Assembly (NCBI RefSeq): GCF_030013595.1 | Contig: NZ_CP122768.1 | DNA from: Escherichia coli | Lineage (GTDB): Bacteria > Pseudomonadota > Gammaproteobacteria > Enterobacterales > Enterobacteriaceae | DNA length: 64,000 nt | Strand: one strand, 5' to 3' | The notes under the pieces: model-generated | Told to the model about the DNA's origin: nothing | The model's input: the letters and a program-made list of their open reading frames with translations, nothing else | Databases searched by the model: none | Translations under genes and position numbers: made by a program | Shown: positions 391-50,524 of the stretch, piece by piece | How positions within the stretch are numbered: position 1 is the stretch's first letter | Layout: the number at the start of each line of letters is the position of its first letter

Positions 391-403
391 GCCTCAAAAC
401 AGT

Positions 404-499: not shown

Positions 500-558
500 C
501 CCCATAACCACATAATCGCGTTACACTATTTTAATAATTAAGACAGGGAGAAATAAAA

Positions 559-1230
559 ATGCGCGTACTGGTTGTTGAAGACAATGCGTTGTTACGTCAC
601 CACCTTAAAGTTCAGATTCAGGATGCTGGTCATCAGGTCGATGACGCAGAAGATGCCAAAGAAGCCGATTATTATCTCAATGAACATTTACCGGATATTG
701 CGATTGTCGATCTGGGATTGCCAGACGAGGACGGTCTGTCACTGATTCGCCGCTGGCGTAGCAATGATGTTTCACTGCCGATTCTGGTATTAACCGCCCG
801 TGAAAGCTGGCAGGACAAAGTCGAAGTATTAAGTGCTGGCGCTGATGATTACGTGACTAAACCATTTCATATTGAAGAGGTGATGGCGCGAATGCAGGCA
901 TTAATGCGGCGTAATAGCGGTCTGGCTTCACAGGTCATTTCGCTACCCCCGTTTCAGGTTGATCTCTCTCGCCGTGAATTATCTATTAATGACGAAGTGA
1001 TCAAACTGACCGCGTTCGAATACACCATTATGGAAACGTTGATACGCAATAATGGCAAAGTGGTGAGCAAAGATTCGTTAATGCTCCAACTCTATCCGGA
1101 TGCGGAGCTGCGGGAAAGCCATACCATTGATGTACTGATGGGACGTCTGCGCAAAAAAATTCAGGCACAATATCCGCAAGAAGTGATTACCACCGTTCGC
1201 GGCCAGGGCTATCTGTTCGAATTGCGCTGA
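559..1230 (+). CDS. phoP: two-component response regulator PhoP
   Basis: 223-aa ORF with receiver domain and OmpR-type winged helix; overlaps phoQ start (ATGA); synteny. Confidence 0.95.
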
Positions 1231-2690
1231 TGAAAAAATTACTGCGTCTTTTTTTCCCGCTCTCGCTGCGGGTACGTTTTCTGTTAGCAACGGCAGCAGT
1301 AGTATTGGTGCTTTCGCTTGCCTACGGAATGGTTGCGCTGATCGGTTATAGCGTCAGTTTCGATAAAACCACGTTTCGGCTGTTACGTGGCGAGAGCAAT
1401 CTGTTCTATACCCTTGCGAAGTGGGAAAACAATAAGTTGCATGTCGAGTTACCCGAAAATATCGACAAGCAAAGCCCCACTATGACGCTAATTTATGATG
1501 AGAACGGGCAGCTTTTATGGGCGCAACGTGACGTGCCCTGGCTGATGAAGATGATCCAGCCTGACTGGCTGAAATCGAATGGTTTTCATGAAATTGAAGC
1601 GGATGTTAACGATACCAGCCTCTTGCTGAGTGGAGATCATTCGATACAGCAACAGTTGCAGGAAGTGCGGGAAGATGATGACGACGCGGAGATGACCCAC
1701 TCGGTGGCGGTAAACGTCTACCCGGCAACATCGCGGATGCCAAAGTTGACCATTGTGGTGGTGGATACCATTCCGGTGGAGCTAAAAAGTTCCTATATGG
1801 TCTGGAGCTGGTTTATCTATGTGCTCTCAGCCAATCTGCTGTTAGTGATCCCGCTGCTGTGGGTCGCCGCCTGGTGGAGTTTACGCCCCATCGAAGCCCT
1901 GGCAAAAGAAGTCCGCGAACTGGAAGAACATAACCGCGAATTGCTCAATCCAGCCACAACGCGAGAACTGACCAGTCTGGTACGAAACCTGAACCGATTG
2001 TTAAAAAGTGAACGCGAACGTTACGACAAATATCGTACGACGCTCACCGACCTGACCCATAGTCTGAAAACGCCACTGGCGGTGCTGCAAAGTACGCTGC
2101 GTTCTCTGCGTAGTGAGAAGATGAGCGTCAGTGATGCTGAACCGGTAATGCTGGAGCAAATCAGCCGCATTTCACAGCAAATTGGCTACTACCTGCATCG
2201 TGCCAGTATGCGCGGCGGGACATTGCTCAGCCGCGAGCTGCATCCGGTCGCCCCACTGCTGGACAATCTCACCTCGGCGCTGAACAAAGTGTATCAACGC
2301 AAAGGGGTCAATATCTCTCTCGATATTTCGCCAGAGATCAGCTTTGTCGGTGAGCAGAACGATTTTGTCGAGGTGATAGGCAACGTGCTGGATAATGCCT
2401 GTAAATATTGCCTCGAGTTTGTCGAAATATCTGCAAGGCAAACAGACGAGCATCTCTATATTGTGGTCGAGGATGATGGCCCCGGTATTCCATTAAGCAA
2501 GCGAGAGGTCATTTTCGACCGTGGTCAACGGGTTGATACTTTACGCCCTGGGCAAGGTGTAGGGCTGGCGGTAGCCCGCGAAATCACCGAGCAATATGAG
2601 GGTAAAATCGTCGCCGGAGAGAGCATGCTGGGCGGTGCGCGGATGGAGGTGATTTTTGGTCGCCAGCATTCTGCGCCGAAAGATGAATAA
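1230..2690 (+). CDS. phoQ: sensor histidine kinase PhoQ
   Basis: 486-aa ORF with two TM segments, periplasmic acidic patch (EDDDDAE), H-box and ATPase motifs. Confidence 0.95.
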
Positions 2691-2765
2691 ATATGTCCAT
2701 ACTTCACGCATTACGTTAAGCATCCGTTATAATCGGTTGCAGATACCAGCCTGTGGATGCTTAAC

Positions 2766-3887
2766 ATGGAATACCAACTCACTCTTAACTGGCCCGATTT
2801 TCTTGAACGTCACTGGCAGAAACGCCCGGTGGTGTTAAAACGCGGCTTTAATAATTTTATTGACCCAATCTCTCCAGACGAGTTGGCGGGTCTGGCGATG
2901 GAAAGCGAAGTCGACAGTCGACTGGTCAGTCATCAGGATGACAAATGGCAGGTCAGCCACGGTCCATTCGAAAGCTACGATCATCTCGGTGAAACTAACT
3001 GGTCATTGTTAGTGCAAGCAGTGAACCACTGGCATGAGCCGACCGCCGCGCTGATGCGACCGTTCCGTGAACTACCGGACTGGCGTATTGATGATCTGAT
3101 GATCTCTTTTTCCGTACCTGGCGGCGGCGTCGGCCCGCATCTCGATCAGTACGACGTGTTTATCATTCAGGGTACCGGACGTCGTCGCTGGCGAGTGGGC
3201 GAAAAGCTGCAAATGAAACAGCACTGCCCGCACCCGGATCTGTTACAGGTTGATCCGTTCGAAGCCATCATTGATGAAGAACTGGAGCCAGGCGATATTC
3301 TTTATATTCCGCCAGGATTCCCCCATGAAGGCTACGCGCTGGAAAATGCGATGAACTATTCCGTCGGTTTTCGCGCACCAAATACGCGGGAACTGATTAG
3401 CGGATTTGCCGATTATGTGCTGCAACGTGAACTGGGCGGCAACTACTACAGCGATCCGGATGTCCCACCTCGCGCTCATCCTGCGGACGTTCTACCGCAA
3501 GAAATGGATAAACTGCGTGAGATGATGCTTGAATTGATCAACCAGCCGGAACACTTTAAACAGTGGTTTGGCGAGTTTATATCCCAGTCACGTCATGAAC
3601 TGGATATCGCGCCACCAGAGCCGCCTTATCAGCCGGATGAAATCTACGATGCGCTAAAACAAGGTGATGTGCTGGTGCGCCTGGGTGGTCTGCGCGTATT
3701 GCGCATTGGCGACGACGTGTATGCCAATGGTGAGAAGATCGATTCCCCGCACCGTCCGGCACTGGATGCGCTCGCCAGCAACATTGCGCTGACCGCGGAG
3801 AATTTTGGTGATGCATTGGAAGATCCGTCATTCCTCGCGATGCTCGCAGCGCTGGTCAATAGCGGGTATTGGTTCTTCGAAGGGTAA
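2766..3887 (+). CDS. roxA: ribosomal protein-arginine oxygenase (JmjC/cupin family, YcfD/RoxA)
   Basis: ORF 2757-3887; start placed at the internal Met of MEYQLTLNW; synteny between phoQ and pepT. Confidence 0.85.
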   Translation: MEYQLTLNWPDFLERHWQKRPVVLKRGFNNFIDPISPDELAGLAMESEVDSRLVSHQDDKWQVSHGPFESYDHLGETNWSLLVQAVNHWHEPTAALMRPFRELPDWRIDDLMISFSVPGGGVGPHLDQYDVFIIQGTGRRRWRVGEKLQMKQHCPHPDLLQVDPFEAIIDEELEPGDILYIPPGFPHEGYALENAMNYSVGFRAPNTRELISGFADYVLQRELGGNYYSDPDVPPRAHPADVLPQEMDKLREMMLELINQPEHFKQWFGEFISQSRHELDIAPPEPPYQPDEIYDALKQGDVLVRLGGLRVLRIGDDVYANGEKIDSPHRPALDALASNIALTAENFGDALEDPSFLAMLAALVNSGYWFFEG

Positions 3888-3935
3888 GTTTGGATTTAAG
3901 CCGGATGCGGCATCACATGCCGCATCCCTTTTCGC

Positions 3936-5162
3936 TTACTTCCGTTGCGCCGTCAACTCGGCAATACGGACGATCACCTGCACCGCTTTTTCCATACCTT
4001 CCAGAGTCACAAACTCATGCTTACCATGATAGTTGTAACCGCCAGTGAACAGGTTCGGGCACGGTAATCCCATAAACGACAACTGCGCGCCGTCGGTACC
4101 GCCGCGGATCGGTTTCAGTTCCGGTTCAATATCGCAGTCACGCATCGCCTGCTGGGCGATATCGAGAATATGCGGATGCTCAACCACTTTCTCGCGCATA
4201 TTGTAGTAACTGTCTTCAATCACCAGTTCAATGTAGCAATCAGGGTGTAACCCTTTGCCCACTTTTTTGGCGATCTCCATCATTTTGCGTTTACGCGCTT
4301 CAAACTGCTTACGATCAAAATCACGAATGATGTAGTGCATATCGGCCCGTTCAACGGTGCCTTTCATGCTCGCCAGGTGATAGAAACCTTCATAGCCTTC
4401 TGTCATTTCCGGGCTTTCATTTGCCGGAACTTCCGCATGAATACGTGCCGCCAGCGAAAGCGCATTTACCATCACTCCTTTCGCCGTGCCCGGGTGAACA
4501 TTGTTACCGACAATTTTGATATTGACCGACGCGGCGTTGAAGTTTTCAAACTCCAGTTCGCCTACGCCACCACCATCAACGGTGTAAGCCCAGCGGGCAT
4601 CGAAGGCGTCAACATCAAAATGTTTCGCCCCTTTGCCCACTTCTTCATCCGGGGTAAAGGCGACGCGAATATCACCATGCGGAATGTTTTTTTGTTGTAA
4701 TACCGCCAGCGCGGTCATGATTTCTGCAATACCTGCTTTGTCATCGGCACCTAACAAGGTTTTACCATCGGTGGTAATCAGCGTCTGACCCAGTAGCTGA
4801 TGCAGCACCGGGAACATAACCGGTGATAAAACTTCATCGCCGATACCCAGCGCAATATCGCCACCGCGATAGTTTTCAACAATTTGCGGATTCACATTTT
4901 TGCCGCTGCAATCCGGTGAGGTATCCACATGAGAAATAAAGCCAATCGCCGGGATATCGCCAGGGACGTTAGCCGGTAACGTCGCCATCAAAGTGCCCTT
5001 CTCACTTAAGGTCACATTGATAAGCCCCATCTCTTCGAGCTGCTCTTTCAGCAGATGCAATAACTTCCATTGGCCTTCCGTGCTGGGAACCTGTCTCACC
5101 CCTGCCTTTGATTGGGTATCCAGAGACACGTAGTTCAAAAATCGCTCAAGTAGTTTATCCAT
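3936..5162 (-). CDS. pepT: peptidase T (tripeptide aminopeptidase, M20 family)
   Basis: ORF 3936-5204; start placed at MDKLLERFL; M20 metal-binding motifs; synteny. Confidence 0.9.
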
Positions 5163-5411
5163 GTAGTCACCCTCACTTTTTGTGACAACATTATTAAGAA
5201 GCAAGAAAAGACAAACATTGCGTCAGGTCACTTTTACCCCTGCAAGCGGGAATATTTATCAGCATTACCTTAATGAATATAAAGCTAAGCCAGTAATTCA
5301 CAACAAAGATTGGCGATTCAAGCGGTTTGCCGTAGAATTACCGCCCTCATTAAGAGTCACCAAGGTGGTTAACCACAAACCCCGCATCGGTAAGCCATCC
5401 GTTGCGTTTAC

Positions 5412-6548
5412 ATGGGACAGAGTAAAAAATTGAATAAACAACCGAGTTCGCTTTCACCGCTGGTGCAATTGGCGGGAATTCGCAAATGCTTTGATGGTAA
5501 AGAGGTCATTCCCCAGCTGGATCTGACTATCAACAATGGCGAGTTCCTCACGCTGCTTGGCCCTTCTGGCTGCGGTAAAACAACCGTTCTTCGCCTGATT
5601 GCAGGTCTGGAAACTGTTGATTCCGGACGCATCATGCTGGATAACGAGGACATCACCCACGTTCCGGCGGAAAACCGCTATGTGAACACTGTTTTCCAAA
5701 GCTACGCACTTTTCCCCCACATGACCGTGTTCGAAAATGTGGCCTTTGGGTTACGCATGCAAAAAACCCCCGCTGCTGAAATTACGCCCCGCGTGATGGA
5801 AGCCCTGCGGATGGTGCAGCTGGAAACCTTCGCTCAACGCAAACCGCATCAGCTCTCTGGTGGTCAACAGCAACGCGTCGCCATTGCCCGCGCGGTGGTT
5901 AACAAGCCTCGTCTGTTGTTGCTGGATGAGTCGCTCTCAGCGCTGGATTACAAACTGCGCAAGCAAATGCAGAACGAGCTGAAAGCGTTACAGCGTAAGC
6001 TTGGCATTACATTCGTCTTCGTGACTCACGACCAGGAAGAAGCACTCACCATGTCGGACAGGATTGTGGTGATGCGCGATGGTCGCATTGAGCAAGACGG
6101 CACGCCGCGTGAAATCTATGAAGAGCCGAAAAACCTGTTTGTTGCTGGGTTTATTGGCGAAATCAATATGTTTAACGCCACTGTCATCGAACGTCTAGAC
6201 GAGCAGCGCGTACGCGCCAACGTTGAAGGCCGCGAATGTAATATCTACGTTAACTTCGCCGTTGAACCGGGGCAAAAACTGCATGTTCTGCTGCGCCCGG
6301 AAGACTTACGTGTTGAAGAGATTAACGACGACAACCACGCTGAAGGGCTGATTGGTTACGTTCGCGAGCGTAACTACAAAGGCATGACGCTGGAGTCGGT
6401 TGTTGAACTGGAAAATGGCAAGATGGTGATGGTCAGCGAATTCTTCAATGAAGACGATCCTGACTTTGACCACTCTCTCGACCAAAAAATGGCCATTAAT
6501 TGGGTAGAAAGCTGGGAGGTCGTACTGGCTGATGAAGAACACAAGTAA
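5412..6548 (+). CDS. potA: spermidine/putrescine ABC transporter ATP-binding protein
   Basis: 378-aa ORF with Walker [10 protein letters not shown] and ABC signature LSGGQQQR. Confidence 0.95.
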
Positions 6549-7395
6549 GTTCCAGAATGTAGTGATTGTCACTATTGTCGGTTGGCTTGTGTTGTTTGTC
6601 TTTCTGCCCAACCTGATGATCATTGGCACCAGCTTTTTGACCCGCGACGACGCCAGTTTCGTCAAAATGGTCTTTACGCTGGATAACTACACGCGTCTGC
6701 TCGATCCGCTCTATTTTGAAGTGCTATTGCACTCGCTGAATATGGCGCTGATCGCCACCCTCGCCTGCCTGGTGCTGGGCTATCCTTTTGCCTGCTTTCT
6801 GGCGAAGCTGCCACACAAGGTGCGTCCGCTGCTGCTGTTTCTGCTGATTGTTCCGTTCTGGACCAACTCATTGATTCGTATCTACGGGCTGAAAATTTTC
6901 CTCAGCACCAAAGGCTATCTCAACGAGTTTTTGCTCTGGCTGGGCGTTATTGATACACCAATTCGCATCATGTTCACGCCCAGTGCGGTGATTATCGGTC
7001 TGGTTTACATTCTGCTACCGTTTATGGTGATGCCGCTGTACTCCAGTATCGAAAAACTGGATAAGCCGTTGCTGGAGGCGGCGCGCGATCTCGGTGCCAG
7101 CAAGTTGCAGACCTTTATCCGCATCATTATCCCACTGACGATGCCGGGAATTATTGCCGGATGTTTGCTGGTGATGCTGCCAGCGATGGGCCTGTTCTAT
7201 GTGTCCGACCTGATGGGCGGTGCGAAAAACCTGCTGATCGGTAACGTCATCAAAGTACAGTTCCTCAATATTCGTGACTGGCCGTTTGGTGCAGCCACCA
7301 GCATTACGCTGACTATCGTAATGGGCCTGATGTTGCTGGTTTACTGGCGCGCTTCTCGTTTGCTGAATAAGAAGGTGAGCGATATAGATAATTAA
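6532..7395 (+). CDS. potB: spermidine/putrescine ABC transporter permease with a prophage-derived altered C-terminus
   Basis: Polytopic permease ORF; the last codons (…KKVSDIDN) lie inside the prophage junction, whereas the native end (…KKVELE-stop, overlapping the potC start) is found at attR near 48670-48690. Confidence 0.85.
7364..7377. repeat. attL core: 14-bp direct repeat tgaataagaaggtg
   Basis: Identical 14-mer at 48665-48678 next to the integrase; lies within potB 3' codons. Confidence 0.75.
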
Positions 7396-7622
7396 TCCTT
7401 TATATTCAATGAAATAAGTTGGTTTTTAAAGGGTTTTATTGTTGAAGGCAACCGCGTTGTGTCTTTCACCAAAATCAATCAGTTGCGTTCTGGTTTTGGA
7501 GAATGTTTTTTGAGGCTTTTTGTTAAAGCCTGTTATGCATTGCCTCAATTAATAACCGTTTCCCCAGCCCTCCCAACCTTCAAAAGTCGGGAGGGTTCTA
7601 AACACCAGTTGCGATTGATTTA

Positions 7623-8195
7623 TTAGCCAATACCAAACGCTCGGATTGAACCCAAATCCTCCAGATTGTTCAGATCCTCTTTCATTTCACGCTGACGGCG
7701 ATAAATCTCGTCATTGCGATCGACCTGAGCCTGCGCCATTGCTGCCGCCAGCTCCTGAAGCTGTGCCATTGTCAGAGTGACAAGGTTATTTGCTGCATCC
7801 CCCCATCCCAGCGTTGACCGCGTACCTGCAACCTTTGTCGCCATTGCCACGGGCGCAATACGACTTATTGAGTCTGCACCACCATTCCAGGTACGACCGT
7901 TCCATTCGAACGTGAACGGCTGCGCCTCCTGTTCTGTGCGCCATGCTTCGATTTCCTGGCGTTTGGCGGCTTTTGCTGCTTCCAGCATTTCAGGTGATAC
8001 AGTGAACGGGGCTATATCCCCCCATTTACCGCTTTGCAGCTCCTGCCAAATTTGCTGGCCTGTTGTTGCTGTGTCTTCTGGTGTAGATGTGTAGGGGATG
8101 AAATCTTTCATCCCCTCAAATAACACTTCACAGTCAATTGCGCCATTCTCCAGCCTGCGGGCGTTTTTGATTTCTTTTATTTTTATCCCATTCAT
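7623..8195 (-). CDS. tail fibre assembly protein (Tfa)
   Basis: 190-aa ORF directly downstream of a fibre gene; Tfa/gpG-like architecture. Confidence 0.7.
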   Translation of the reverse strand: MNGIKIKEIKNARRLENGAIDCEVLFEGMKDFIPYTSTPEDTATTGQQIWQELQSGKWGDIAPFTVSPEMLEAAKAAKRQEIEAWRTEQEAQPFTFEWNGRTWNGGADSISRIAPVAMATKVAGTRSTLGWGDAANNLVTLTMAQLQELAAAMAQAQVDRNDEIYRRQREMKEDLNNLEDLGSIRAFGIG

Positions 8196-9598
8196 CAGGA
8201 AACTCTCACAAACAGACCGAAAATAAAATCGCTGGTCGCCTGAGTGCTGTTGCCCAGAGAGACATAGGCTCCCGAAAAGTGGCGTCCAGTATCCAGCACA
8301 TACCGTGGTGCTCCGTCATTCGACACTATAACAGCGCAGGGAATCAGAGTGCTGCCGCTTACGCTGTCACCACGTTTTATCGTATATTCATCAGTATTTG
8401 CTGCACGGTACGCGGCCTGAGTTAAGCCGCCAACTGCCACATCTCTGAATGGTACGTCGTACCACGGGCCAGCTATGTTATACAGCCATCTCGCACCATC
8501 TATCGCGGTTAAGTTTTGACTCAGGCATGTCCAGCGTATGTTCGTACTGTCCGCCCTGACCTCACAACAATACACGTCCTGATTAACCCCGTTAAAAATG
8601 ACAAACTTATCGCGCCTGTTTTGATTTTCATGCGTTGCTGTTTCCAGCATTTTTATCTCTACCTCTCCGCTAAAAACAACCCCTTCTATAATGTCCTTGG
8701 AATATGGGCCACCATATTGAACGACAAGATAGCGCCCCGGGGGAGTGGTCTGTACCCAAGAAGCAAATGTTGCTGATGTCGCGTATTTATCAAACTCCTT
8801 ACGTTGTGTGGGATACGCGCCATAACCGAAAGCTCCCGGAAGTGCCACACAACCTTCAGTTCGGTTGTAAATGTCTGTTTGTACATCCATCGTTGCAGCA
8901 CTTTTCAACCCCAGATTGTCTCGGGATTCCTGCTGAGCATCTTCCCCCTCTGCTGCAATTTCTGACAGGTGATTCGCCGTTTTCAGCGTTGCAGATAACG
9001 CAACATCAATATCATCTCTGGCCTGCTCTGCATCGGATGCGGCCTGTTTGGCGGCTTCAGCATCCTGCCTGACTTCTTCGGCGGTATCCTCAACCTGCGA
9101 GGCCAGCTGTTCAACGCGCTGCGTGTTTTCCTCCACAGCATTTGTATTCTGCTGAACATTATCTGCCAGCGTTTCAACCTGCTCTTTTATCAGAGCTGCC
9201 GCTTCAGCATGTTGCCCTGCCTGTCGTTCGCTTTCCGCTGCCGCTTCCGCGCTCTGCTGCGCCTGCACCACCAGTTCTTCGAACCGCTTAACAACATCTG
9301 GCTTCAGGTCGCCTTCATCGAGAGCGGTCAGGAAGTCGTTCAGCGTGCCGTGCTTTGAATCGTCGTAAACCGAAATATCACCGACACAATATTCTCTTTC
9401 AATACATGACCGAAGATAAACGTCATATCTTCCGGTCTGAGCCTCAAATGCATATTCTCCTGCCGGCCCCGTCACCACTGTTGCCACCGTTCTCATGACC
9501 ACTGCGGATGTATTCTGTCGGGCTTTCAGAATAATATGGTATCCGGACATGGGGAGTCCCGCACCATCCGTCAGCACACCCGAAATTAATACAGACAT
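8195..9598 (-). CDS. side tail fibre protein, lambda Stf-like N-terminus
   Basis: N-terminus (ISGVL.DG.G.P…LKAR.N.S…VY.DS.HGTLNDFL) resembles the lambda Stf N-terminal domain; acidic coiled-coil middle; followed by Tfa. Confidence 0.75.
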   Translation of the reverse strand: MSVLISGVLTDGAGLPMSGYHIILKARQNTSAVVMRTVATVVTGPAGEYAFEAQTGRYDVYLRSCIEREYCVGDISVYDDSKHGTLNDFLTALDEGDLKPDVVKRFEELVVQAQQSAEAAAESERQAGQHAEAAALIKEQVETLADNVQQNTNAVEENTQRVEQLASQVEDTAEEVRQDAEAAKQAASDAEQARDDIDVALSATLKTANHLSEIAAEGEDAQQESRDNLGLKSAATMDVQTDIYNRTEGCVALPGAFGYGAYPTQRKEFDKYATSATFASWVQTTPPGRYLVVQYGGPYSKDIIEGVVFSGEVEIKMLETATHENQNRRDKFVIFNGVNQDVYCCEVRADSTNIRWTCLSQNLTAIDGARWLYNIAGPWYDVPFRDVAVGGLTQAAYRAANTDEYTIKRGDSVSGSTLIPCAVIVSNDGAPRYVLDTGRHFSGAYVSLGNSTQATSDFIFGLFVRVS

Positions 9599-32453: not shown

Positions 32454-32528
<75 letters not shown>

Positions 32529-32531
32529 ATA

Positions 32532-32607
<76 letters not shown>

Positions 32608-32609
32608 AC

Positions 32610-32686
32610 TGGACCGCCACCGGGGACTCGAACCTCGCACACTCAACTTAAAGGGTTGACGCTCTTTCCCGATGAGCTAGTGGCGG
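32610..32686 (-). tRNA. tRNA with nominal anticodon UUU (Lys) but atypical anticodon loop (C at position 33)
   Basis: Acceptor ccgccac/gtggcgg, GGTTCGAGTCC T-loop, anticodon arm tcaac-CCTTTAA-gttga; one mismatch in the T-stem. Confidence 0.45.
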
Positions 32687-32687
32687 T

Positions 32688-32763
32688 TGGTGGCCCTTGC
32701 TGGATTTGAACCAGCGACCTGGCGATTATGAGTCGCTCGCTCTCACCACTGAGCTAAAGGGCC
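32688..32763 (-). tRNA. tRNA-Ile2 (anticodon CAU, ileX/ileZ-like)
   Basis: Sequence closely resembles E. coli minor tRNA-Ile (GGCCC.TTAGCTCAGTGGT.AGAGC…GACTCATAATCGC…GGTTCAA.TCC…GGGCCACCA). Confidence 0.7.
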
Positions 32764-36108: not shown

Positions 36109-36264
36109 TTACTCCTCAGGTTCGTAAGCTGTGAAGACAGCGACCTCCGTCTGGCCGGTTCGGATTCGTACCTCGCAGAGGTCTTTCCTCGTTACCAGTG
36201 CCGTCACTATGACGGTTAAACAGATGACGATCAGGGCGATTAACATCGCCTTTTGCTGCTTCAT
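36109..36264 (-). CDS. hok: Hok/Gef-family type I toxin (51 aa), absent from the ORF track
   Basis: Hand translation: MKQQKAMLIALIVICLTVIVTALVTRKDLCEVRIRTGQTEVAVFTAYEPEE; SD aggag upstream; overlapping short mok-like frame; hallmark Hok TM domain and conserved Cys. Confidence 0.85.
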   Translation of the reverse strand: MKQQKAMLIALIVICLTVIVTALVTRKDLCEVRIRTGQTEVAVFTAYEPEE

Positions 36265-36554
36265 AGCCTGCTTCTCCTTGACCTTTCGGTCCGTAAGAGG
36301 CTAATCTCTATGTGTCGCATAGATATGGCCTCAGATTAATGTTAAGCGTCTTGCAGGACGCGTAATGTTAACTGGGGCTTTTCTCTATCTGCCTTTTGGT
36401 GTTCATGCCTGAGGCAGATAGCCTCAAGCACCCGCAGCAATTCTACTTAACTCTCCTTTTCCCGCAAACCGTTTTTATCCCCATCGGCAAATCGAATACA
36501 CCACCAACGCCACCGCCATCGCAATTCCTACTGTAGTGAATGCCTCAGGCCAGG

Positions 36555-42429: not shown

Positions 42430-42520
42430 AACACTTGTGTTTTTTACATCAAAAAACTTAGGTTTTTCTACATAAAAATCTTGACCACCAGCCTTAGGTT
42501 ATTCTAAATTTCATTCATCA
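42430..42520 (+). promoter_or_regulatory. candidate repressor-controlled early-left promoter (TTGACC -35) with two cttaggtt operator half-sites
   Basis: aacttaggttttt and gccttaggttatt flank ttgacc; same half-site as in 41901-41976. Confidence 0.5.
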
Positions 42521-42586: not shown

Positions 42587-42739
42587 ATGGATACTATCGA
42601 TCTTGGCAACAACGAATCTCTGGTATACGGCGTGTTTCCCAACCAGGACGGCACATTCACCGCGATGACGTATACCAAAAGCAAAACGTTTAAAACCGAA
42701 ACTGGCGCTCGTCGCTGGTTAGCCAGAAACACTGACTGA
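42587..42739 (+). CDS. YdfA-like small protein (DUF1391-like)
   Basis: Internal Met of track ORF 42533-42739 gives MDTIDLGNNESLVYGVFPNQDGTF… (~50 aa), first gene of the early-left operon. Confidence 0.5.
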   Translation: MDTIDLGNNESLVYGVFPNQDGTFTAMTYTKSKTFKTETGARRWLARNTD

Positions 42740-43389
42740 TGAGGCTGACGATGGAATTTAAAGATTTACCAATATCAATACAGGAAATGGCCGCTGATGT
42801 GATTCGCTCGCAACTGGCGCGGAACCCAATGATATTAGTAGATAAAGTGTTCATCAGAAATTTATCAAATCATGTCCGCAATTCTTTTACCGGACTGTAT
42901 TCATATTCGTTCACAAACAATCATTGTGTAGAAAATAAAGCAAAGCCCATTGCAGAAACGATAACGCAAAACATCAATACGAAACAAACCGAAGAAGAAA
43001 TTGACCAGTTTACCCGTGATGCTGGCTTAAAATGCAGGAAAGAAAAATCGCCATATGCGGGAAATATGTTTGTTTATGACAACCTTATCCGAATTCGTGG
43101 CGAAATTCCGACTGAATACCTGGCAAGAATTCACCAGGCATTACTTAAAAATCTGGAAACGGAAGTATTTGATGGCAATACCAACGGCTCCTTCGTGGTG
43201 TCAACTCTCGCAAAAGAGTGGGATACAGATAATCGCTGGAATGTTGCTACATGGTTATTCAGCAACAAAGCTGCTGCCCTGGAAGCTGCGGCCTGTATTT
43301 GCGACCTGCTAAGGACAGACCGCAAATACAACCTGGATGTGTATAGCTATATTTATGCTGAACACTATCCGCTATGGATTAACTGGTAA
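42739..43389 (+). CDS. hypothetical protein (moron, no recognisable family)
   Basis: 216-aa ORF; start may be 42751 (MEFKDL). Confidence 0.45.
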   Translation: MRLTMEFKDLPISIQEMAADVIRSQLARNPMILVDKVFIRNLSNHVRNSFTGLYSYSFTNNHCVENKAKPIAETITQNINTKQTEEEIDQFTRDAGLKCRKEKSPYAGNMFVYDNLIRIRGEIPTEYLARIHQALLKNLETEVFDGNTNGSFVVSTLAKEWDTDNRWNVATWLFSNKAAALEAAACICDLLRTDRKYNLDVYSYIYAEHYPLWINW

Positions 43390-43671
43390 TTACAAAGCTG
43401 TACCAGCAGGGCCACGGCGACCAGCGCCACGATTGTAATCAATGATGCCATTATAAAGCGCATTATTTAATTTATCGTCGAATGCCGATTCTGTGAGCCC
43501 TAGATCTGAATGAGTTTTTAATAACCCTGATTGCCTGAGTTGATTAACCAGGCATTCAATCTGTTTTTCAATAAGCGGATGTATTGGCTTGTTTGGCATT
43601 TTATCCTCCATTGAAGTTACTGGTTGAGAATGGAGACCACACGTGACAGCGTGTTGTCGTGCACCGGACAC
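43390..43671 (-). CDS. hypothetical small protein, convergent with the upstream gene
   Basis: Track ORF 93 aa; probable start at internal MEDKMPNK (~73 aa). Confidence 0.4.
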   Translation of the reverse strand: MSGARQHAVTCGLHSQPVTSMEDKMPNKPIHPLIEKQIECLVNQLRQSGLLKTHSDLGLTESAFDDKLNNALYNGIIDYNRGAGRRGPAGTAL

Positions 43672-43929
43672 GGATAAGAATCCGGCACTGACAGTTTACT
43701 GAAAGGATATATCCCTGAAAAGTCAGGGCATAACGCGAAAGCGCACGGCGGAGGTGTCTTTTCCTTAGAAGGCTTGTCGTTAGATTTCTTCGATTGTGCG
43801 CTTCCGGTTGTAGCACTCCGCGAAATGGCGCGGCGGTAAGTATGGCGGGGTTATTCCTTCCCCGTTGAGGACACCGGGTTGTCAGGTTGACCATACGCTT
43901 AAGTGACAACCCCGCTGCAACAACCCATG

Positions 43930-43988
43930 TTGATTACCTTTTGGTGGGTATCCGTTTTTTGTTTTCCCTTGTGATACCCGCCCTTTTT
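43930..43988 (+). ncRNA. DicF-like small RNA (terminator-ended)
   Basis: Hairpin ggtgggtatc…gatacccgcc plus T5 at 43943-43988, about 185 bp upstream of the DicB homologue; Qin-like gene order. Confidence 0.45.
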
Positions 43989-44173
43989 AAAGTGAATTTT
44001 GTGATGCGGTGAATGCGGCTCAGCGCACGCGGAACAGTTAAAAAAGTGATCGGTACTCTGTATTTGTTTTATGGAGTTGGTTTCCCTGTATTCCGGCGTT
44101 AATTGTTAACTGGTTAACGTCACCTGGAGGCACCAGGCACCGCATCACAAAATTCATTGTTGAGGACGCGATA

Positions 44174-44362
44174 ATGGAAACGTTATTACCAAACGTCAAT
44201 ACGTCTGAAGGTTGTTTTGAAATTGGTGTCAGAATCAGTAACCCTGTATTTACTGAAGATGCCATTAATAAGAGAAAACACGAACGGGAGCTATTAAATC
44301 AAATATGCATTGTTTCAATGCTGGCCCGTTTACGCCTGATGCAAAAAGGACGCTGCCAATGA
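44174..44362 (+). CDS. dicB: cell division inhibitor DicB homologue
   Basis: 62-aa ORF METLLPNVNTSEGCFEIGV.ISNPVFTEDAINKRK…ICIVSMLARLRLM, matching my recollection of Qin DicB. Confidence 0.75.
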   Translation: METLLPNVNTSEGCFEIGVRISNPVFTEDAINKRKHERELLNQICIVSMLARLRLMQKGRCQ

Positions 44363-44562
44363 ATACAGCATTTGCACTCGTTCTGACAGTTTTTCTTAAT
44401 ACAGGCGAACCAGTCGATCTTGTTATTGGTATACATGACTCAATGAAAGAATGCATGGCTGCCGCAGCGGAACAGAAAATTCCCGGCAACTGTTATCCGG
44501 TTGATAAAGTTATTCGCATGGACAATAACGAAATCCCGGCAGGACTTAAAACAGCACCGTAA
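44359..44562 (+). CDS. YdfD-like small protein
   Basis: Internal Met of track ORF 44305-44562 (MNTAFALVLTVFLNTGEPVD…), ~67 aa, immediately after dicB as in Qin. Confidence 0.5.
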   Translation: MNTAFALVLTVFLNTGEPVDLVIGIHDSMKECMAAAAEQKIPGNCYPVDKVIRMDNNEIPAGLKTAP

Positions 44563-44639
44563 TTAATATCCGGTTTCATTTTTATATGCCAGCAATGGCA
44601 GGGATTTGTTCACCCTAAAAATAGTTACGAGGTTTATCA

Positions 44640-47102
44640 ATGAGCGCTGATAAAGAAGAAATTGCACTATATTACGAAGCCAAAAATGACAAAGTCAGAA
44701 AACGCCTTGGGATTAAAGGCGGTTTTTACTGGCGCACAGCAAAAAAATTATCGATTGCAATATCACGCGGTGTTGTCGCAATGGACGATGCCGGATTTGA
44801 CGAAGAGGATTTTAAAAAACCTGTTCGCGTCCATTTACCCGTTGTGAATGACCTTCCTCCGGAAGGCGTGTTTGATACCGAATTCTGCAACCGATACGAA
44901 AAAGGCGGGGAAGATGGTATCACAATGGTACTTATCGCGCCCTCTGTTCAGGACAAACCAGCCAGCACTGACAATACCAACGTCAACGGTGAAGACATGA
45001 CTGAGATTGAGGAGAATATGCTCCTGCCAGTTTCAGGTCAGATTCTGCCTGTTCGATGGCTGGCGCAACACAACAGCGAAAAACCGATCACGCACGTTTC
45101 GCGGGACGAACTGCGCGCATTACATAACGCACAGGATGAAAAACTTCCCGCCGTTACCGCGCTGGCCATCTCAAATAAAGCAGCGCAACTCGAACCACTG
45201 GAAATTCGCGATCTCCACAAACTGGTACGCGACACTGACAAAGTTTTCCCTAATCCTGGTAATTCAGACCTGGGACTGATGACCGCTTTTTTCGAAGCAT
45301 ACCTGGGCGCTAACTACACCGATCGCGGTCTGCTTACAAAAGAGTGGATGAAGGGAAATCGTGTTTCACGTATCACCCGCACGGCTTCCGGCGCTAATGC
45401 TGGCGGCGGGAACAAAACCGATCGCAATCCGAATTTAGTACACACCTTCGATACGCTGGATGTGGAGATTGCAGCAGCCACACTTCCGATGGATTTTAAT
45501 ATTTATGAAATTCCGGGCAGCGTTTATCGTCGCGCAAAAGAAGTCGTCCGGAAGAAAGAAAGTCCGTTCAAAGAATGGTCCGCAGCACTTCGCGCAATCC
45601 CGGGTATCCTGGATTATTCCCGTGCCGCTATTTTTGCACTTATCCGGAGCGCCCACCCTGAACTTTACCTCTACAGGGTACGCCTTCAGGTGTATATCAA
45701 CGCCCACTTAACGGAGACTGATCACGAGAATCCTACCGAGGAAACTCTCGCTGCTGCACGACATACACCGGAAAAAGATATCCTGGAAGAAGTTAACCGC
45801 GAACTGGCTGCTGCTAAACACGAAACAGAAGAAGAAAAAAATAATGAGGAAAAATCACAACCGTCTGACGCAATGGCAGATGAACAGGCAACGACTGAAA
45901 CAATGGAGCCGGATACAACTGAACATCGCCAGGACACGCAATCGCTGGATACTCAGGCGCAGATAGATCCGGTTAATCAGGTAAAAGTTACCGCTGACGA
46001 AGTAAACAAAATTATGCAGGCAGCCAATATCAACCAGCCTGACGCCAATCAGTTGCTTGCTGTATCACGTGGTGAATTTGTTGCAGGGATTAGCGACCCG
46101 AATGATCCGAAATGGGTGAAGGGGATTGAAACCCGCGATTCAGTGAATCAGAACCAGCAAGAAATGGAACAGAACGACCAGAAAGCGGAAAAAAACAGCC
46201 CAAATGCGTTACAAAACGAGCCAGAAACGAAACAACCTGAGCCAGTAGCGCAACAGGAATCGGAAAAAGTCTGCACCGCCTGCGGTCAGAGCGGTGGCGG
46301 CAGCTGCCCTGATTGTGGCGCGGTGATGGGCGACGCAACATACCAGGAAACATTCGATGAAGAGAATCAGGTTGAAGTTCAGGAAAATGATCCGGAGGAA
46401 ATGGAAGGCGCTGAACATCCACACAAGGAGAATGCTGGCAGCGCTCAGGACCACGCCAGCGATAATGAAACTGGCGAGACGGCAGATCCCTTAATTGCGG
46501 TGAACGGTCATCACGTTATCACATCCACCAGCAGAGTGTGGTACCACCTGATGATCGACCTTGAAACAATGGGAACCAACACCAATGCGCCCATCGTGGT
46601 TATTGGTGCGGTTTTCTTCGACCCACAAACAGGGGAAATCGGGCCAGTATTTTATATCGTTATCAGTCTGACTGACGCAATGAATACAGGGGCTGTTCCT
46701 GACGGTGGAACCATCGAATGGTGGCTGAAGCAGTCCAGTGAAGCCAGAGCTGCCATTTTAACAGACCAGGTAAAACTGAAGGATGCCCTTTCGCGGTTTC
46801 GGGAGTTCATCAACGAATACTCAGATGAAAAATTCGTTCAGGTATGGGGTAATGGTGCAACTTTCGATAACGCAATTTTGCGCACCTCATACGAACGTCT
46901 GGACATCCCCTGCCCGTGGCGCTACTACAACGATCGCGATGTACGCACAATCGTTGAGCTGGGAAAAACCATCGGTTTTGATGCCAGAACAGCTATCCCG
47001 TTCGAAGGTGTACCCCACAATGCACTGGATGATGCCCGTCACCAGGCGAAATACGTTTCAGTAATCTGGCAAAAACTGATCCCGAGTCAGGCTGATTTTT
47101 AA
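44640..47102 (+). CDS. large multidomain protein: N-terminal domain of unknown function, acidic linker, CxxC-x-CxxC zinc ribbon, C-terminal DnaQ-like (DEDDh) 3'-5' exonuclease domain
   Basis: 820-aa ORF; C-terminus has DLET…, FDNAIL and HNALDDA motifs in exonuclease order; zinc ribbon CTACGQSGGGSCPDCG; long E/Q/D-rich linker. Confidence 0.6.
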   Translation: MSADKEEIALYYEAKNDKVRKRLGIKGGFYWRTAKKLSIAISRGVVAMDDAGFDEEDFKKPVRVHLPVVNDLPPEGVFDTEFCNRYEKGGEDGITMVLIAPSVQDKPASTDNTNVNGEDMTEIEENMLLPVSGQILPVRWLAQHNSEKPITHVSRDELRALHNAQDEKLPAVTALAISNKAAQLEPLEIRDLHKLVRDTDKVFPNPGNSDLGLMTAFFEAYLGANYTDRGLLTKEWMKGNRVSRITRTASGANAGGGNKTDRNPNLVHTFDTLDVEIAAATLPMDFNIYEIPGSVYRRAKEVVRKKESPFKEWSAALRAIPGILDYSRAAIFALIRSAHPELYLYRVRLQVYINAHLTETDHENPTEETLAAARHTPEKDILEEVNRELAAAKHETEEEKNNEEKSQPSDAMADEQATTETMEPDTTEHRQDTQSLDTQAQIDPVNQVKVTADEVNKIMQAANINQPDANQLLAVSRGEFVAGISDPNDPKWVKGIETRDSVNQNQQEMEQNDQKAEKNSPNALQNEPETKQPEPVAQQESEKVCTACGQSGGGSCPDCGAVMGDATYQETFDEENQVEVQENDPEEMEGAEHPHKENAGSAQDHASDNETGETADPLIAVNGHHVITSTSRVWYHLMIDLETMGTNTNAPIVVIGAVFFDPQTGEIGPVFYIVISLTDAMNTGAVPDGGTIEWWLKQSSEARAAILTDQVKLKDALSRFREFINEYSDEKFVQVWGNGATFDNAILRTSYERLDIPCPWRYYNDRDVRTIVELGKTIGFDARTAIPFEGVPHNALDDARHQAKYVSVIWQKLIPSQADF

Positions 47103-47163: not shown

Positions 47164-47433
47164 ATGAGCGAACAGTACCTGATAACGCTCGACGAGTGGA
47201 AACCAAAACGGTTCAGTCTCCCAATAACAAACACCACCCTGGTGAAATACGGAAAACTAGGATACATCGTTCCAAGACCACAAAAAATTCGTGGGCGTTG
47301 GCTGATAGATCGCCGGGCAGTATTTGTTGGACCTGGTGAAACAGGAATTGCGCCGGAAATTCATACTGGCGATGATGATGCACTGAAGGAGATTTTAACT
47401 CATGTCACCGAGGCCACGAAAAAACAGCACTGA
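47164..47433 (+). CDS. xis: excisionase (Xis-like)
   Basis: Small ORF just upstream of int, overlapping its start; winged-helix-like segment resembling lambda Xis. Confidence 0.6.
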   Translation: MSEQYLITLDEWKPKRFSLPITNTTLVKYGKLGYIVPRPQKIRGRWLIDRRAVFVGPGETGIAPEIHTGDDDALKEILTHVTEATKKQH

Positions 47434-48520
47434 CGTAGCCGGTCTTTACGAAAAGTTTGATCGCAGAACTGGCAGGGTTTACTACCAGTATAAAAACCCT
47501 GTGACTGGAAAATTTCACGGACTCGGAACAGACAAAGGTAAGGCAGAAAAAATCGCTTCCACAGCCAATCAGCGAATAGCTGCAGCAGAGGCTGAATATT
47601 TCATGCGCAAAATTGATGAAAGTCCGTCAGCAACAAAACGTCGGGGTATCAGATTAAAGGCATGGGTTGATCGATATCTGAAAATACAGGACGCGCGACT
47701 GAAAAATGGAGATATTGCAGCTACAACTCACAAAGAAAAAGCCCGAATGGCTGCATACCTGGTTTCCCGTCTGGGAAACCACCCATTGAAAGAACTGGAA
47801 GTAAGAGACTTTGCATTAATACTGGATGAGTGGCTGGATAAAGACATGGTCAGCACAGCGAGAGTAAATCGCGGATTATGGGTTGATATTTATAAAGAAG
47901 CACAGCATGCAGGGGAAGTTCCTCCTGGATGGAATCCTCCGGAGGCTACCCGTAAACCGATCCCTAAAGTAACCAGAGCCAGGCTCACCATGGAAGACTG
48001 GCAAAAAATTTACAATGCAACGCCTGAAAAACACTTTATCCGTAACGCAATGCTTCTTGCGATTGTTACTGGTCAGCGCCGTGATGACATTTGCCACATG
48101 CGTTTTTCAGATGTGTGGAACGAACACTTGCATATCACCCAGGGAAAAACCGGAATGCGTCTGGCGTTACCGCTTACACTACGCTGTGATGCCATTGGGA
48201 TAACGTTAAAAGAAGTTATTGATGGGTGCCGAGACAGAATATTAAGTCCATATCTAATCCATAGTCGGCACCAGAAACAACCGAAGCCGATGAGTAAAGA
48301 CAACCTGAGCGACTACTTTGCCAAAGCACGGGATCTGGCTGGGATAATTCCACCAGCAGGAAAAACTCCGCCAACATTTCATGAACAACGCTCTCTATCA
48401 GAACGGCTGTACCGTGCACAGGGTATCGATACAAAAACATTACTAGGACATAAAGTCCAGGCAACCACCGATCGCTATAACGATACTCGAGGTCAGGAAT
48501 GGGTTAAGTTGGTTATTTGA
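47402..48520 (+). CDS. int: tyrosine integrase (lambda Int family)
   Basis: 372-aa ORF with catalytic-domain motifs (R…, HxxR-like LLGH, C-terminal Y in TDRYND) next to attR. Confidence 0.9.
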   Translation: MSPRPRKNSTDVAGLYEKFDRRTGRVYYQYKNPVTGKFHGLGTDKGKAEKIASTANQRIAAAEAEYFMRKIDESPSATKRRGIRLKAWVDRYLKIQDARLKNGDIAATTHKEKARMAAYLVSRLGNHPLKELEVRDFALILDEWLDKDMVSTARVNRGLWVDIYKEAQHAGEVPPGWNPPEATRKPIPKVTRARLTMEDWQKIYNATPEKHFIRNAMLLAIVTGQRRDDICHMRFSDVWNEHLHITQGKTGMRLALPLTLRCDAIGITLKEVIDGCRDRILSPYLIHSRHQKQPKPMSKDNLSDYFAKARDLAGIIPPAGKTPPTFHEQRSLSERLYRAQGIDTKTLLGHKVQATTDRYNDTRGQEWVKLVI

Positions 48521-48559
48521 CAAACACCATATGGAATATCCGTCACCATCTCAGGAAAA

Positions 48560-48620
48560 AAGTGTTGTAAAATGCGTGGCCTAGTTTTGGGGAAACGTTT
48601 TGGAGAGATTTTGGAGAAAG
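48560..48620. promoter_or_regulatory. candidate integrase arm-type binding repeats (ttttggRga x3)
   Basis: gttttggggaaac gttttggagagat tttggagaaagg between int and attR; similar ggttttggagaat on the attL arm near 7470-7500. Confidence 0.4.
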
Positions 48621-48664
48621 GAAAAAATTGAATAAATTCAAAATCCTGAAAGTGTCCCGCCTTA

Positions 48665-48678
48665 TGAATAAGAAGGTG
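48665..48678. repeat. attR core: 14-bp direct repeat tgaataagaaggtg
   Basis: Identical to 7364-7377; followed by the native potB 3' end (gtggaactcgaatga). Confidence 0.75.
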
Positions 48679-48686
48679 GAACTCGA

Positions 48687-49481
48687 ATGATCGGTCGACT
48701 GCTTCGCGGCGGTTTTATGACCGCTATCTACGCGTACCTGTATATTCCAATCATTATTTTGATTGTGAACTCTTTCAACAGCTCGCGCTTTGGCATCAAC
48801 TGGCAGGGTTTTACCACTAAATGGTATAGCCTGCTGATGAACAACGACAGTCTGTTGCAGGCAGCTCAGCATTCATTGACGATGGCGGTGTTTTCAGCGA
48901 CGTTTGCTACGCTTATCGGTTCACTGACGGCAGTTGCGCTGTACCGTTATCGCTTTCGCGGTAAACCGTTCGTTAGCGGAATGCTGTTCGTGGTGATGAT
49001 GTCGCCAGATATTGTGATGGCGATTTCTCTGCTGGTGCTGTTTATGCTGCTGGGTATTCAGCTTGGCTTCTGGTCGCTGCTGTTCTCGCATATCACCTTC
49101 TGCCTGCCGTTTGTGGTGGTGACGGTGTATTCGCGCCTGAAAGGTTTTGACGTGCGAATGCTGGAAGCGGCGAAAGATCTCGGTGCCAGCGAATTTACCA
49201 TTCTGCGAAAAATCATTCTGCCACTGGCAATGCCAGCGGTAGCGGCGGGCTGGGTGTTAAGCTTTACCCTGTCGATGGACGATGTAGTAGTTTCTTCGTT
49301 CGTCACCGGACCAAGCTATGAAATTCTGCCGTTAAAAATTTATTCGATGGTCAAAGTCGGCGTATCGCCGGAAGTTAACGCGCTGGCAACCATATTACTG
49401 GTGCTGTCGCTGGTGATGGTAATTGCCAGCCAGCTTATTGCTCGTGATAAAACGAAAGGTAACACAGGGGACGTTAAATGA
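48687..49481 (+). CDS. potC: spermidine/putrescine ABC transporter permease
   Basis: 264-aa polytopic permease ORF; start overlaps the native potB stop. Confidence 0.95.
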   Translation: MIGRLLRGGFMTAIYAYLYIPIIILIVNSFNSSRFGINWQGFTTKWYSLLMNNDSLLQAAQHSLTMAVFSATFATLIGSLTAVALYRYRFRGKPFVSGMLFVVMMSPDIVMAISLLVLFMLLGIQLGFWSLLFSHITFCLPFVVVTVYSRLKGFDVRMLEAAKDLGASEFTILRKIILPLAMPAVAAGWVLSFTLSMDDVVVSSFVTGPSYEILPLKIYSMVKVGVSPEVNALATILLVLSLVMVIASQLIARDKTKGNTGDVK

Positions 49482-50524
49482 AAAAATGGTCACGCCACCT
49501 GCTCGCGGCGGGTGCTCTGGCACTGGGCATGAGCGCCGCTCACGCCGATGACAACAACACGCTGTATTTCTACAACTGGACCGAGTACGTGCCGCCAGGA
49601 CTGCTTGAACAGTTCACCAAAGAAACCGGTATTAAGGTTATCTATTCGACTTACGAGTCGAACGAAACCATGTACGCGAAGCTGAAAACGTACAAAGACG
49701 GTGCCTATGACCTGGTGGTTCCTTCAACCTATTACGTCGATAAAATGCGTAAAGAAGGGATGATCCAGAAGATCGACAAGTCGAAGTTAAGCAATTTCAG
49801 CAACCTCGATCCAGACATGCTCAACAAGCCGTTTGACCCGAATAACGACTATTCCATTCCGTATATCTGGGGTGCGACGGCGATTGGCGTTAACGGTGAT
49901 GCGGTAGATCCGAAATCCGTTACCAGCTGGGCCGATCTGTGGAAGCCTGAGTACAAAGGCAGCCTGCTGCTGACCGACGATGCCCGTGAAGTGTTCCAGA
50001 TGGCGCTGCGCAAACTGGGCTACTCCGGTAACACTACCGATCCGAAAGAGATTGAAGCTGCATATAACGAGCTAAAAAAACTGATGCCAAACGTAGCAGC
50101 GTTTAACTCCGATAACCCGGCTAACCCGTACATGGAAGGCGAAGTTAACCTCGGCATGATCTGGAACGGTTCTGCTTTCGTTGCACGCCAGGCGGGTACG
50201 CCTATTGACGTGGTGTGGCCGAAAGAAGGCGGTATTTTCTGGATGGACAGCCTGGCGATCCCAGCAAATGCCAAAAACAAAGAAGGCGCGCTGAAATTGA
50301 TCAACTTCCTGCTGCGCCCAGATGTGGCAAAACAGGTTGCAGAAACTATCGGTTATCCAACGCCAAACCTTGCGGCGCGTAAGCTGTTAAGTCCGGAAGT
50401 GGCGAACGATAAAACGCTCTACCCGGATGCTGAAACCATTAAAAATGGTGAATGGCAGAATGACGTTGGCGCAGCCAGCAGCATTTATGAAGAGTATTAT
50501 CAGAAGCTGAAAGCAGGACGTTAA
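49478..50524 (+). CDS. potD: spermidine/putrescine periplasmic binding protein
   Basis: 348-aa ORF with signal peptide, solute-binding fold. Confidence 0.95.
   Translation: MKKWSRHLLAAGALALGMSAAHADDNNTLYFYNWTEYVPPGLLEQFTKETGIKVIYSTYESNETMYAKLKTYKDGAYDLVVPSTYYVDKMRKEGMIQKIDKSKLSNFSNLDPDMLNKPFDPNNDYSIPYIWGATAIGVNGDAVDPKSVTSWADLWKPEYKGSLLLTDDAREVFQMALRKLGYSGNTTDPKEIEAAYNELKKLMPNVAAFNSDNPANPYMEGEVNLGMIWNGSAFVARQAGTPIDVVWPKEGGIFWMDSLAIPANAKNKEGALKLINFLLRPDVAKQVAETIGYPTPNLAARKLLSPEVANDKTLYPDAETIKNGEWQNDVGAASSIYEEYYQKLKAGR

Follow-up and report, generated by a model that had tools for sequence, protein, structure and literature searches.

A non-DicF allele in the dicF slot of an intact dicB operon in an Escherichia coli prophage

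DicF, a small RNA (sRNA) of the Escherichia coli K-12 prophage Qin, pairs with xylR mRNA through its 5′ end and with ftsZ and pykA mRNAs through its 3′ part (Balasubramanian et al., PMC5069750). The K-12 prophage Rac encodes another sRNA, KilS (b4833, 98 nt), which was predicted by RIL-seq (sequencing of interacting RNAs after their ligation), verified by northern blotting, and assigned RIL-seq partners (Bar et al. 2021, PMC8175672); the partner reported is yncL, which is not a division gene, and the paper makes no mention of DicF. PasA/PasC and PasD/STnc100 are prophage Hfq sRNAs with altered-seed variants that were spread by recombination (Zhu, Shabalina and Storz 2026 preprint, doi 10.64898/2026.05.13.724894). 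Here we analyze a 64,000-nucleotide stretch of E. coli DNA (RefSeq assembly GCF_030013595.1, contig NZ_CP122768.1), referred to as the window, in which a terminator-like hairpin precedes genes for homologues of the cell-division inhibitor DicB and of YdfD. An earlier note on this DNA had taken the hairpin for the end of a DicF-like sRNA. We find that it lies at the position that dicF has in Qin, here called the slot, and that this slot is allelic: the window carries one of several cassettes found between the same flanks, while the DicB-YdfD division-inhibition module behind it is real, intact, and ordinary.

The slot of the window holds a different cassette

Alignment to the K-12 Qin prophage places the hairpin where dicF is annotated (locus L001, 3383-3435). 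Approximately 130 nt before the slot and approximately 65 nt after it are near-identical in the two prophages, and between these flanks lies a replaced cassette (allele C; Table 1), made up of a new 5′ tail (43922-43942) that ends U-rich together with the 5′ arm, the loop, and the inner 3′ arm of the hairpin. As in Qin, the slot follows ydfA-type genes, stands 175 to 185 nt before dicB, is flanked by two predicted RNase III stems, and belongs to an operon with the same repressor and promoter layout. The difference is the cassette itself, ~56 nt, across which the window RNA and DicF have in common only a U-rich stretch before the stem, the GG.GG/CCGCC base of a large-loop hairpin, and the CUUUUU tail.

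The hairpin has a 10-bp stem in which GGTGGGTATC (43943-43952) pairs with GATACCCGCC (43973-43982). A C and then TTTTT (43984-43988) follow on its 3′ side, 185 nt ahead of the dicB ATG, and in this respect the earlier note, which had placed a hairpin and T5 about 185 bp upstream of dicB, was correct. The predicted fold has an energy of -16.6 kcal/mol (z = -5.5), and none of 200 dinucleotide shuffles folded as well. The loop (CGUUUUUUGUUUUCCCUUGUG) is ~20 nt long, U/C-rich, and accessible; because it exceeds the 8-nt loop limit of a simple terminator scan, the hairpin was not reported by that scan. ACCUUUU precedes the stem and CUUUUU follows it, so that a U-rich run and a terminator stand together in the manner of an Hfq-type module. 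A U-rich run, a Rho-independent terminator hairpin, and a U-tail reportedly make up the Hfq-binding module, a description said to come from Ishikawa et al. in 2012.

By sequence, the window RNA lies outside the DicF family. A search with the DicF covariance model was one of the checks that the earlier note had proposed, and it went against the prediction. The Rfam model (RF00039, gathering score of 48 bits) gave no match in the whole window at the gathering threshold and no match within 43500-44700 (1.2 kb) with lax filters at an E value of ≤10. The same model scored K-12 dicF at 76.7 bits and Rac KilS at 39.1 bits, the latter below the gathering score; the window allele is not picked up by it at all. 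At either threshold, gathering or an E value of ≤10, Rfam likewise had no known family over the hairpin. The segments with which DicF pairs are gone as well: its xylR-pairing 5′ tail, UUUCUGGUGACGUUU, is absent from the window RNA, and CGUUUUUUGUUUUCCCUUGUG stands in place of its ftsZ- and pykA-pairing loop and 3′ stem. Since the DicF family is not matched, we regard the RNA not as DicF but as another allele of the slot. The designation "DicF-like" thus holds for position (the exact dicF slot between conserved flanks) and not for sequence, and the predicted RNA is best described as a positional homologue that departs from DicF by every sequence-based measure. The missing dicF annotation in the closest RefSeq relative was considered as evidence and discarded, as RefSeq lists no feature under canonical dicF either.

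The scaffold on both sides of the cassette is conserved. An RNase III site gives the 190-nt form of DicF its 5′ end in K-12 (PMC10448788); the long precursor stem upstream of the window slot matches this site, and the K-12 alignment predicts a cut at ~43801. On the other side, the 5′ arm of a 19-bp stem in the dicB leader starts just past the U-tract. The RNase III-dependent 72-nt form of DicF ends 19 nt beyond the 53-nt form (PMC5069750), and the RNase III cut is therefore presumed to fall inside the 19-bp stem. This stem is kept in 38 distinct sequences, where changes are almost only from G-C to G-U, with one double change. With both stems intact, the window RNA should, by homology, be released as DicF is.

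Part of the dicB leader resembles STnc100. Positions 21 to 154 of the STnc100 model (RF02076) align to 43995-44151 with 34.5 bits, short of the gathering score of 47, and this partial similarity is confined to the leader, where it covers the outer stem and the CCUGGAGGCACCAGG hairpin. A related prophage has a full STnc100 (99.6 bits; locus L041, 801-967) on the opposite strand, at a distance of ~10 kb. The genes for the Pas sRNAs and STnc100 resemble the slot alleles in their altered seeds and their spread by recombination, but they have no sequence relation to the slot hairpin and are found in late or structural regions, in the neighborhood of Q, lysis, or tail genes. The Pas sRNAs of enteropathogenic E. 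coli, which lie in such regions and not in the dicF slot, were accordingly rejected as the identity of the window RNA.

An allele series that includes KilS

In a five-way alignment of the window, Qin, Rac, E. coli SE11, and phage vB_Apl-pPE4, the slot has a GGCGG/CCGCC hairpin base and CUUUUU, followed by AAAGUGAAUUUUGUGAUG and a dicB or kilR leader. In Rac, the homologous slot upstream of kilR is occupied by KilS (locus L209, 3906-4003, minus strand), whose 3′ hairpin consists of GGCGGCAUCAG-UUUUUUUCUUGAAGUUCGG-CUGAUGUCCGCC plus CUUUUU and runs into the same AAAGUGAAUUUUGUGAUG... leader. KilS and the window RNA agree in their position before a small division-inhibitor gene, in the hairpin base and U-tail, and in the structured leader downstream, with its 19-bp stem and CCUGGAGGCACCAGG hairpin. 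They differ in the upstream flank, the inner stem (GGCGGCAUCAG in KilS), and the loop; KilS is also 98 nt long, possibly has its own promoter, and is followed by kilR, not dicB. KilS is a sister allele of the dicF slot; like DicF, it has been detected by experiment as an sRNA linked to Hfq.

We scanned IMG/VR with the conserved upstream anchor and, separately, with the window-type tail, and obtained several cassettes enclosed by the same pair of flanks. Allele A is canonical DicF, present in 3972 of the 5426 complete E. coli genomes (6699 places); allele B combines the DicF tail with another hairpin. Allele C, the window type, occurs as a single copy in 91 of the same genomes (~1.7%), among them O55:H7, O121:H19 Shiga toxin-producing E. 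coli, and porcine enterotoxigenic E. coli, and on 40-odd IMG/VR contigs; its carriers include O55:H7 RM12579, O121:H19 16-9255, and strain C012. Allele D joins the window-type tail to the hairpin GGCGGCAUCAG-UUUCAUUGCUGG-CUGAUGUCCGCC (94/5426 genomes), and C and D can occur in one genome (e.g., LR778141, K_EC180). Allele E is a minimal hairpin (loci L066 and L200). All sub-alleles of C retain GGCGGGUAUC/GAUACCCGCC as the stem and CGUUUU..UUUUCCC as the basis of the loop, and they vary in the length of the U-run. In all alleles but E, loops of 12 to 20 nt sit on conserved stems, and the stem GGCGGCAUCAG/CUGAUGUCCGCC bears three unrelated loops, in alleles B and D and in KilS. The position-wise conservation profile of the slot is qualitative only and is biased because the loci were gathered through an exact anchor.

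In phage vB_Apl-pPE4 (PP818812.1; locus L208, 2531-2716), a 93-nt C-type unit of tail, hairpin, U-tract, and leader start is perfectly duplicated in tandem. The same structured leader follows, but the gene behind it is of the kilR type and not dicB. Although this phage bears the label of an Actinobacillus phage, its slot region is E. coli lambdoid-like.

In a scan of genomes at the species level, the slot turned up in Escherichia alone (E. coli and E. albertii). Bins of metagenome-assembled genomes labelled Candidatus Nanosynbacter, Collinsella, and Lachnospiraceae (loci L204, L205, and L206) hold contigs with the prophage locus; these matches under other taxa are most likely E. coli-like contigs placed there by binning contamination. 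E. coli SE11 (NC_011415.1; locus L207, 1761-1822), which was scored as a dicF loss in a survey of 27 genomes (Skippington and Ragan, PMC3318445), has allele D in a Qin-like ydfA-ydfB...dicB-ydfD operon. In this strain dicF has been replaced, not lost.

The leader of dicB contains a second allelic island (Table 1). Its versions and the slot cassettes reassort independently, and we dropped the idea that the two co-evolve, as no linkage was seen.

The slot of dicF and kilS has at least six alleles (DicF, KilS, B, C, D, and E), and it may be a swappable "seed cassette", in which recombination places unrelated loops and tails into a near-invariant scaffold of two RNase III stems, a U-rich run, the stem base, and the U-tail ahead of a division-inhibitor gene. 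We put this forward as a tentative proposal. Stated as a single joint claim, in which allele C also has its own regulon with potD and ftsA as candidate targets, it strikes us as doubtful.

Predicted pairing and the role of the hairpin

Pairing was predicted with an accessibility-corrected scan that combined hybridization with ViennaRNA opening energies across translation initiation regions (TIRs, taken from -70 to +40 relative to the start codon), and the 51 TIRs of the window served as background. Unrestricted duplex folding against ftsZ was dropped, since it returned meaninglessly long duplexes for every RNA. For canonical DicF, the scan recovered the validated sites on xylR (-14.6 kcal/mol) and pykA (-11.7), each of which beat 51 of 51 background TIRs, and it found ftsZ at the published site (-7.2; 8 of 51 background TIRs were as good or better). 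The window RNA scored -0.6 against ftsZ, a value that 39 of the 51 background TIRs equalled or bettered, and its scores for xylR (-3.1), pykA (-5.0), and manX (-4.1) were at background level.

Two other mRNAs gave the best scores. The best partner within the window is potD (translation start, 49462-49489), with a hybridization energy of -22.2 and a total of -12.8 kcal/mol; the predicted 22 bp fall into three helices that span the Shine-Dalgarno sequence and the AUG. This gene is found a short way downstream of the prophage and shares the strand of the dicB operon; among 1161 other random windows, a single one scored as well. Within the division and cell wall (dcw) cluster, the best partner is ftsA (-11.2 kcal/mol, +4 to +25), with 9-bp and 5-bp helices just after the start codon. 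We treat both as weak leads only. In the case of potD this is because chance matches are expected, because sub-alleles of C drop the pairing, and because the nearest relative of the window prophage is integrated at ompW, not at potC.

We consider the chance somewhat better than even (roughly 0.55) that the hairpin is both an attenuator before the toxic dicB gene and the 3′ end of an Hfq-dependent sRNA with targets other than those of DicF. An sRNA is suggested by the synteny of the slot, the conserved processing scaffold, and the detection of DicF and KilS as sRNAs, and also by the large loops kept on conserved stems, the maintenance of allele C in 91 genomes, and the duplicate in pPE4. That its regulon would not be that of DicF is suggested by the scan, which recovered the control pairings while the window RNA scored at background.

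In such a scheme, relief of the DicA-family repressor would allow transcription from the dicBp-like promoter through ydfA and the 216-amino-acid open reading frame (ORF) into a structured noncoding stretch. RNase III would cut the two conserved long stems (at ~43801 and within 43993-44011), and termination or processing at 43943-43988 would release small RNAs of ~50, ~70, and ~185 nt. Transcripts that read through would yield DicB, which would block division through MinC and ZipA, and YdfD. The released RNA would keep the Hfq-type module and expose the U/C-rich loop CGUUUUUUGUUUUCCCUUGUG, with the 5′ seed of DicF gone, and it would most likely work as an sRNA that base-pairs in an Hfq-dependent way and has a regulon unlike that of DicF, excluding ftsZ, xylR, pykA, and manX. 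The same hairpin would simultaneously attenuate dicB.

Several points weigh against this scheme. We infer the expression of allele C, its processing, its Hfq dependence, and its action in trans from sequence. The single-stranded 5′ region of the window RNA is very short. The pairing script approximates IntaRNA only crudely; with it, the true DicF-ftsZ pair ranked only 9th of 52 TIRs. The window RNA has no outstanding target among those scanned: its best candidates, potD and ftsA, lie in the 0.1 to 0.5% tail of random windows (ftsA at ~0.5%), so that several equally good matches would be expected per genome by chance, and neither pairing is kept by the sub-alleles of C. Covariation in the hairpin is almost nil, the sole change being from G-U to G-C, which we attribute to the loci being too closely related. 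Finally, as allele E shows, decay of the slot can leave nothing but a terminator.

The last three of these points would fit a hairpin that works purely in cis, as a terminator or attenuator and a processing landmark for dicB and ydfD, with a released RNA that has no function in trans and differences from DicF that are neutral in a part that has only to fold. A stable hairpin followed by U5 immediately before a toxic gene is what such a role would look like, and in K-12 the ydfABC-dicF transcript ends here while a minority reads through (PMC10448788). Terminators, however, favor small loops, and the loops of 12 to 20 nt are kept in every allele but E, each type being conserved across loci; the U-rich run and U-tail of the Hfq module are retained in every allele, DicF and KilS, the sister alleles, are regulators that associate with Hfq, and one phage carries the unit in tandem. 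We hold a purely cis role to be possible and clearly less probable than the combined role.

It is improbable that the window RNA is a functional equivalent of DicF, that is, that it inhibits division at the RNA level through another pairing, such as that with ftsA. The slot always stands ahead of a division inhibitor, dicB or kilR, and the ftsA match is the best in the dcw cluster. Against this, the ftsZ pairing of DicF is lost; ftsA was 1 of 19 TIRs tested, among which ~0.1 such match is expected by chance; its pairing needs an exact U-run length, which is variable among the sub-alleles; and the reported partner of KilS is not a division gene. That the region encodes a 41-amino-acid protein (43887-44012), as a mechanical ORF listing would have it, can be dismissed for practical purposes, since this ORF starts with TTG, has no evident ribosome-binding site, runs through the terminator hairpin, and loses its frame in K-12 (where the same start stops after 27 codons) and in the other alleles.

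The dicB operon and its prophage

The 62-amino-acid ORF behind the slot is DicB by profile and by comparison with K-12 DicB, to which it is identical at 55 of 62 residues without gaps; at 89%, the match is not quite the almost residue-for-residue one that the earlier note had described, but the assignment to DicB was correct. A dicB annotation is also present in E. coli relatives. The next ORF, which had been called YdfD-like, is a YdfD homologue identical to the K-12 protein at 46 of 63 residues (73%), and its start overlaps the dicB stop as ATGA (44359-44362); K-12 YdfD carries the annotation "lysis protein". Both proteins are intact by profile and by comparison with K-12, as the earlier note had supposed. 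The pair thus agrees with that of Qin in its full-length homologues, gene order, and ATGA overlap and differs in its setting, as the Qin prophage is cryptic and the window pair lies in an apparently complete prophage with a heteroimmune repressor.

Division inhibition by DicB depends on MinC and ZipA. Given its 89% identity, the window DicB would be expected to block division in the same MinC- and ZipA-dependent way and, as has been described for DicB (PMC6832061), to inhibit ManYZ-dependent phage entry. Derepression of the operon should, by homology, block division through DicB; repression of ftsZ by the slot RNA is not the expected route.

The module reads as a dicB operon of the PL type, carried by a lambdoid prophage of the Qin/Rac kind. 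The repressor gene upstream is of the DicA family and shares its position and strand with K-12 dicA, and the -35 element of the predicted promoter and the transcribed leader downstream of it align with K-12 dicBp. At the level of sequence, this bears out the idea of an early promoter under repressor control. The surrounding operator-like repeats diverge, which suggests an immunity other than that of Qin and a heteroimmune relative of DicA. The ydfA homologue has a start and leader near-identical to those of K-12 ydfA. The 216-amino-acid ORF in place of ydfB/ydfC had no match in NCBIfam, and the 69-amino-acid antisense ORF is labelled hypothetical in the closest E. coli relative. The 820-amino-acid protein encoded after the YdfD homologue has an Exonuc_VIII N-terminal segment and a C-terminal Rv2179c-like 3′-5′ exoribonuclease domain (PF16473, E value of 1e-69), which replaces the usual RecE nuclease domain; its NCBIfam exoVIII score is under the cut-off, and its relatives are variously annotated "exonuclease", "3′-5′ exonuclease", and "RecE family".

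The prophage is lambdoid, extends over ~7.6 to 48.5 kb of the window, and is inserted between potB and potC (regions, 6532-7395 and 47402-49481). It appears to be complete, unlike the cryptic Qin, with structural, lysis, replication, and int/xis genes. The insertion splits the potABCD operon, leaving potB on one flank and potC/potD on the other; these host genes are 95 to 99% identical to those of E. coli. The junction of integrase and potC was found in 1605 of the 5426 complete E. coli genomes, and the site is therefore a common one for integration.

Table 1. Features of the slot region, the dicB operon, and the prophage (positions in the window).
Feature	Position	Strand	Basis or remark
Four tRNA genes in tandem (Gly-tcc, Thr-tgt, Lys-ttt, Met-cat)	32454-32763	-	Late region of prophage
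hok/sok-type toxin-antitoxin RNA locus	36262-36433	-	Rfam sok, 108 bits; within prophage
DicA-family repressor gene, 135 aa	41977-42384	+	NCBIfam NF007257, "transcriptional repressor DicA", 237 bits (cut-off 101)
dicBp-like promoter	42481-42510	+	TTGACC, 18-nt spacer, TAAATT; consensus scan
ydfA homologue, DUF1391-type, 50 aa	42587-42739	+	phrog_751, E 8e-36
216-aa ORF in place of ydfB/ydfC	42739-43389	+	phrog_2151, E 3e-97
69-aa ORF, antisense inside plus-strand dicB operon	43390-43599	-	phrog_4274, E 2e-41
Long conserved precursor stem	43736-43806	+	Inverted repeat; helix in minimum free energy and centroid folds, window and K-12
Replaced cassette (allele C)	43922-43977	+	~56 nt; identity to K-12 lost with sharp borders
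Hairpin + C + T5	43943-43988	+	Intrinsic terminator; predicted sRNA 3′ end
Structured dicB leader	43993-44156	+	Perfect 19-bp stem (43993-44011/44138-44156) enclosing three hairpins
Second allelic island in dicB leader	44043-44092	+	At least 5 unrelated versions among loci
dicB, cell-division inhibitor, 62 aa	44174-44362	+	Pfam PF05358, positions 1-62/62, E 5e-38
ydfD homologue, DUF1482, 67 aa	44359-44562	+	Pfam PF07358, E 7e-23
820-aa exonuclease gene	44640-47102	+	Next operon gene after ydfD homologue
Integrase-like ORF	47402-48520		Downstream of dicB operon

What the slot alleles would mean

DicF is among the oldest known bacterial sRNAs, and the presence or absence of dicF has been used in evolutionary surveys; alleles of the slot other than DicF escape both similarity searches and the Rfam model. 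Allele C is carried by ~1.7% of the complete E. coli genomes, and another non-DicF allele has a similar share. The homology of DicF in Qin and KilS in Rac, upstream of two unrelated division inhibitors, is a link that was not made in the KilS paper (PMC8175672), and this relationship and the allele series are the parts most worth following up. If the non-DicF alleles are inactive, the dicB module of the window is simply an ordinary one whose terminator is a variant. If they are active, prophages of pathogenic E. coli would carry unrecognized regulators of the host that are co-induced with DicB or KilR. Were the more tentative seed-cassette view to hold as well, strains scored as dicF-less, such as SE11, would have exchanged dicF, and each lambdoid prophage would deliver its own host-directed sRNA alongside DicB or KilR.

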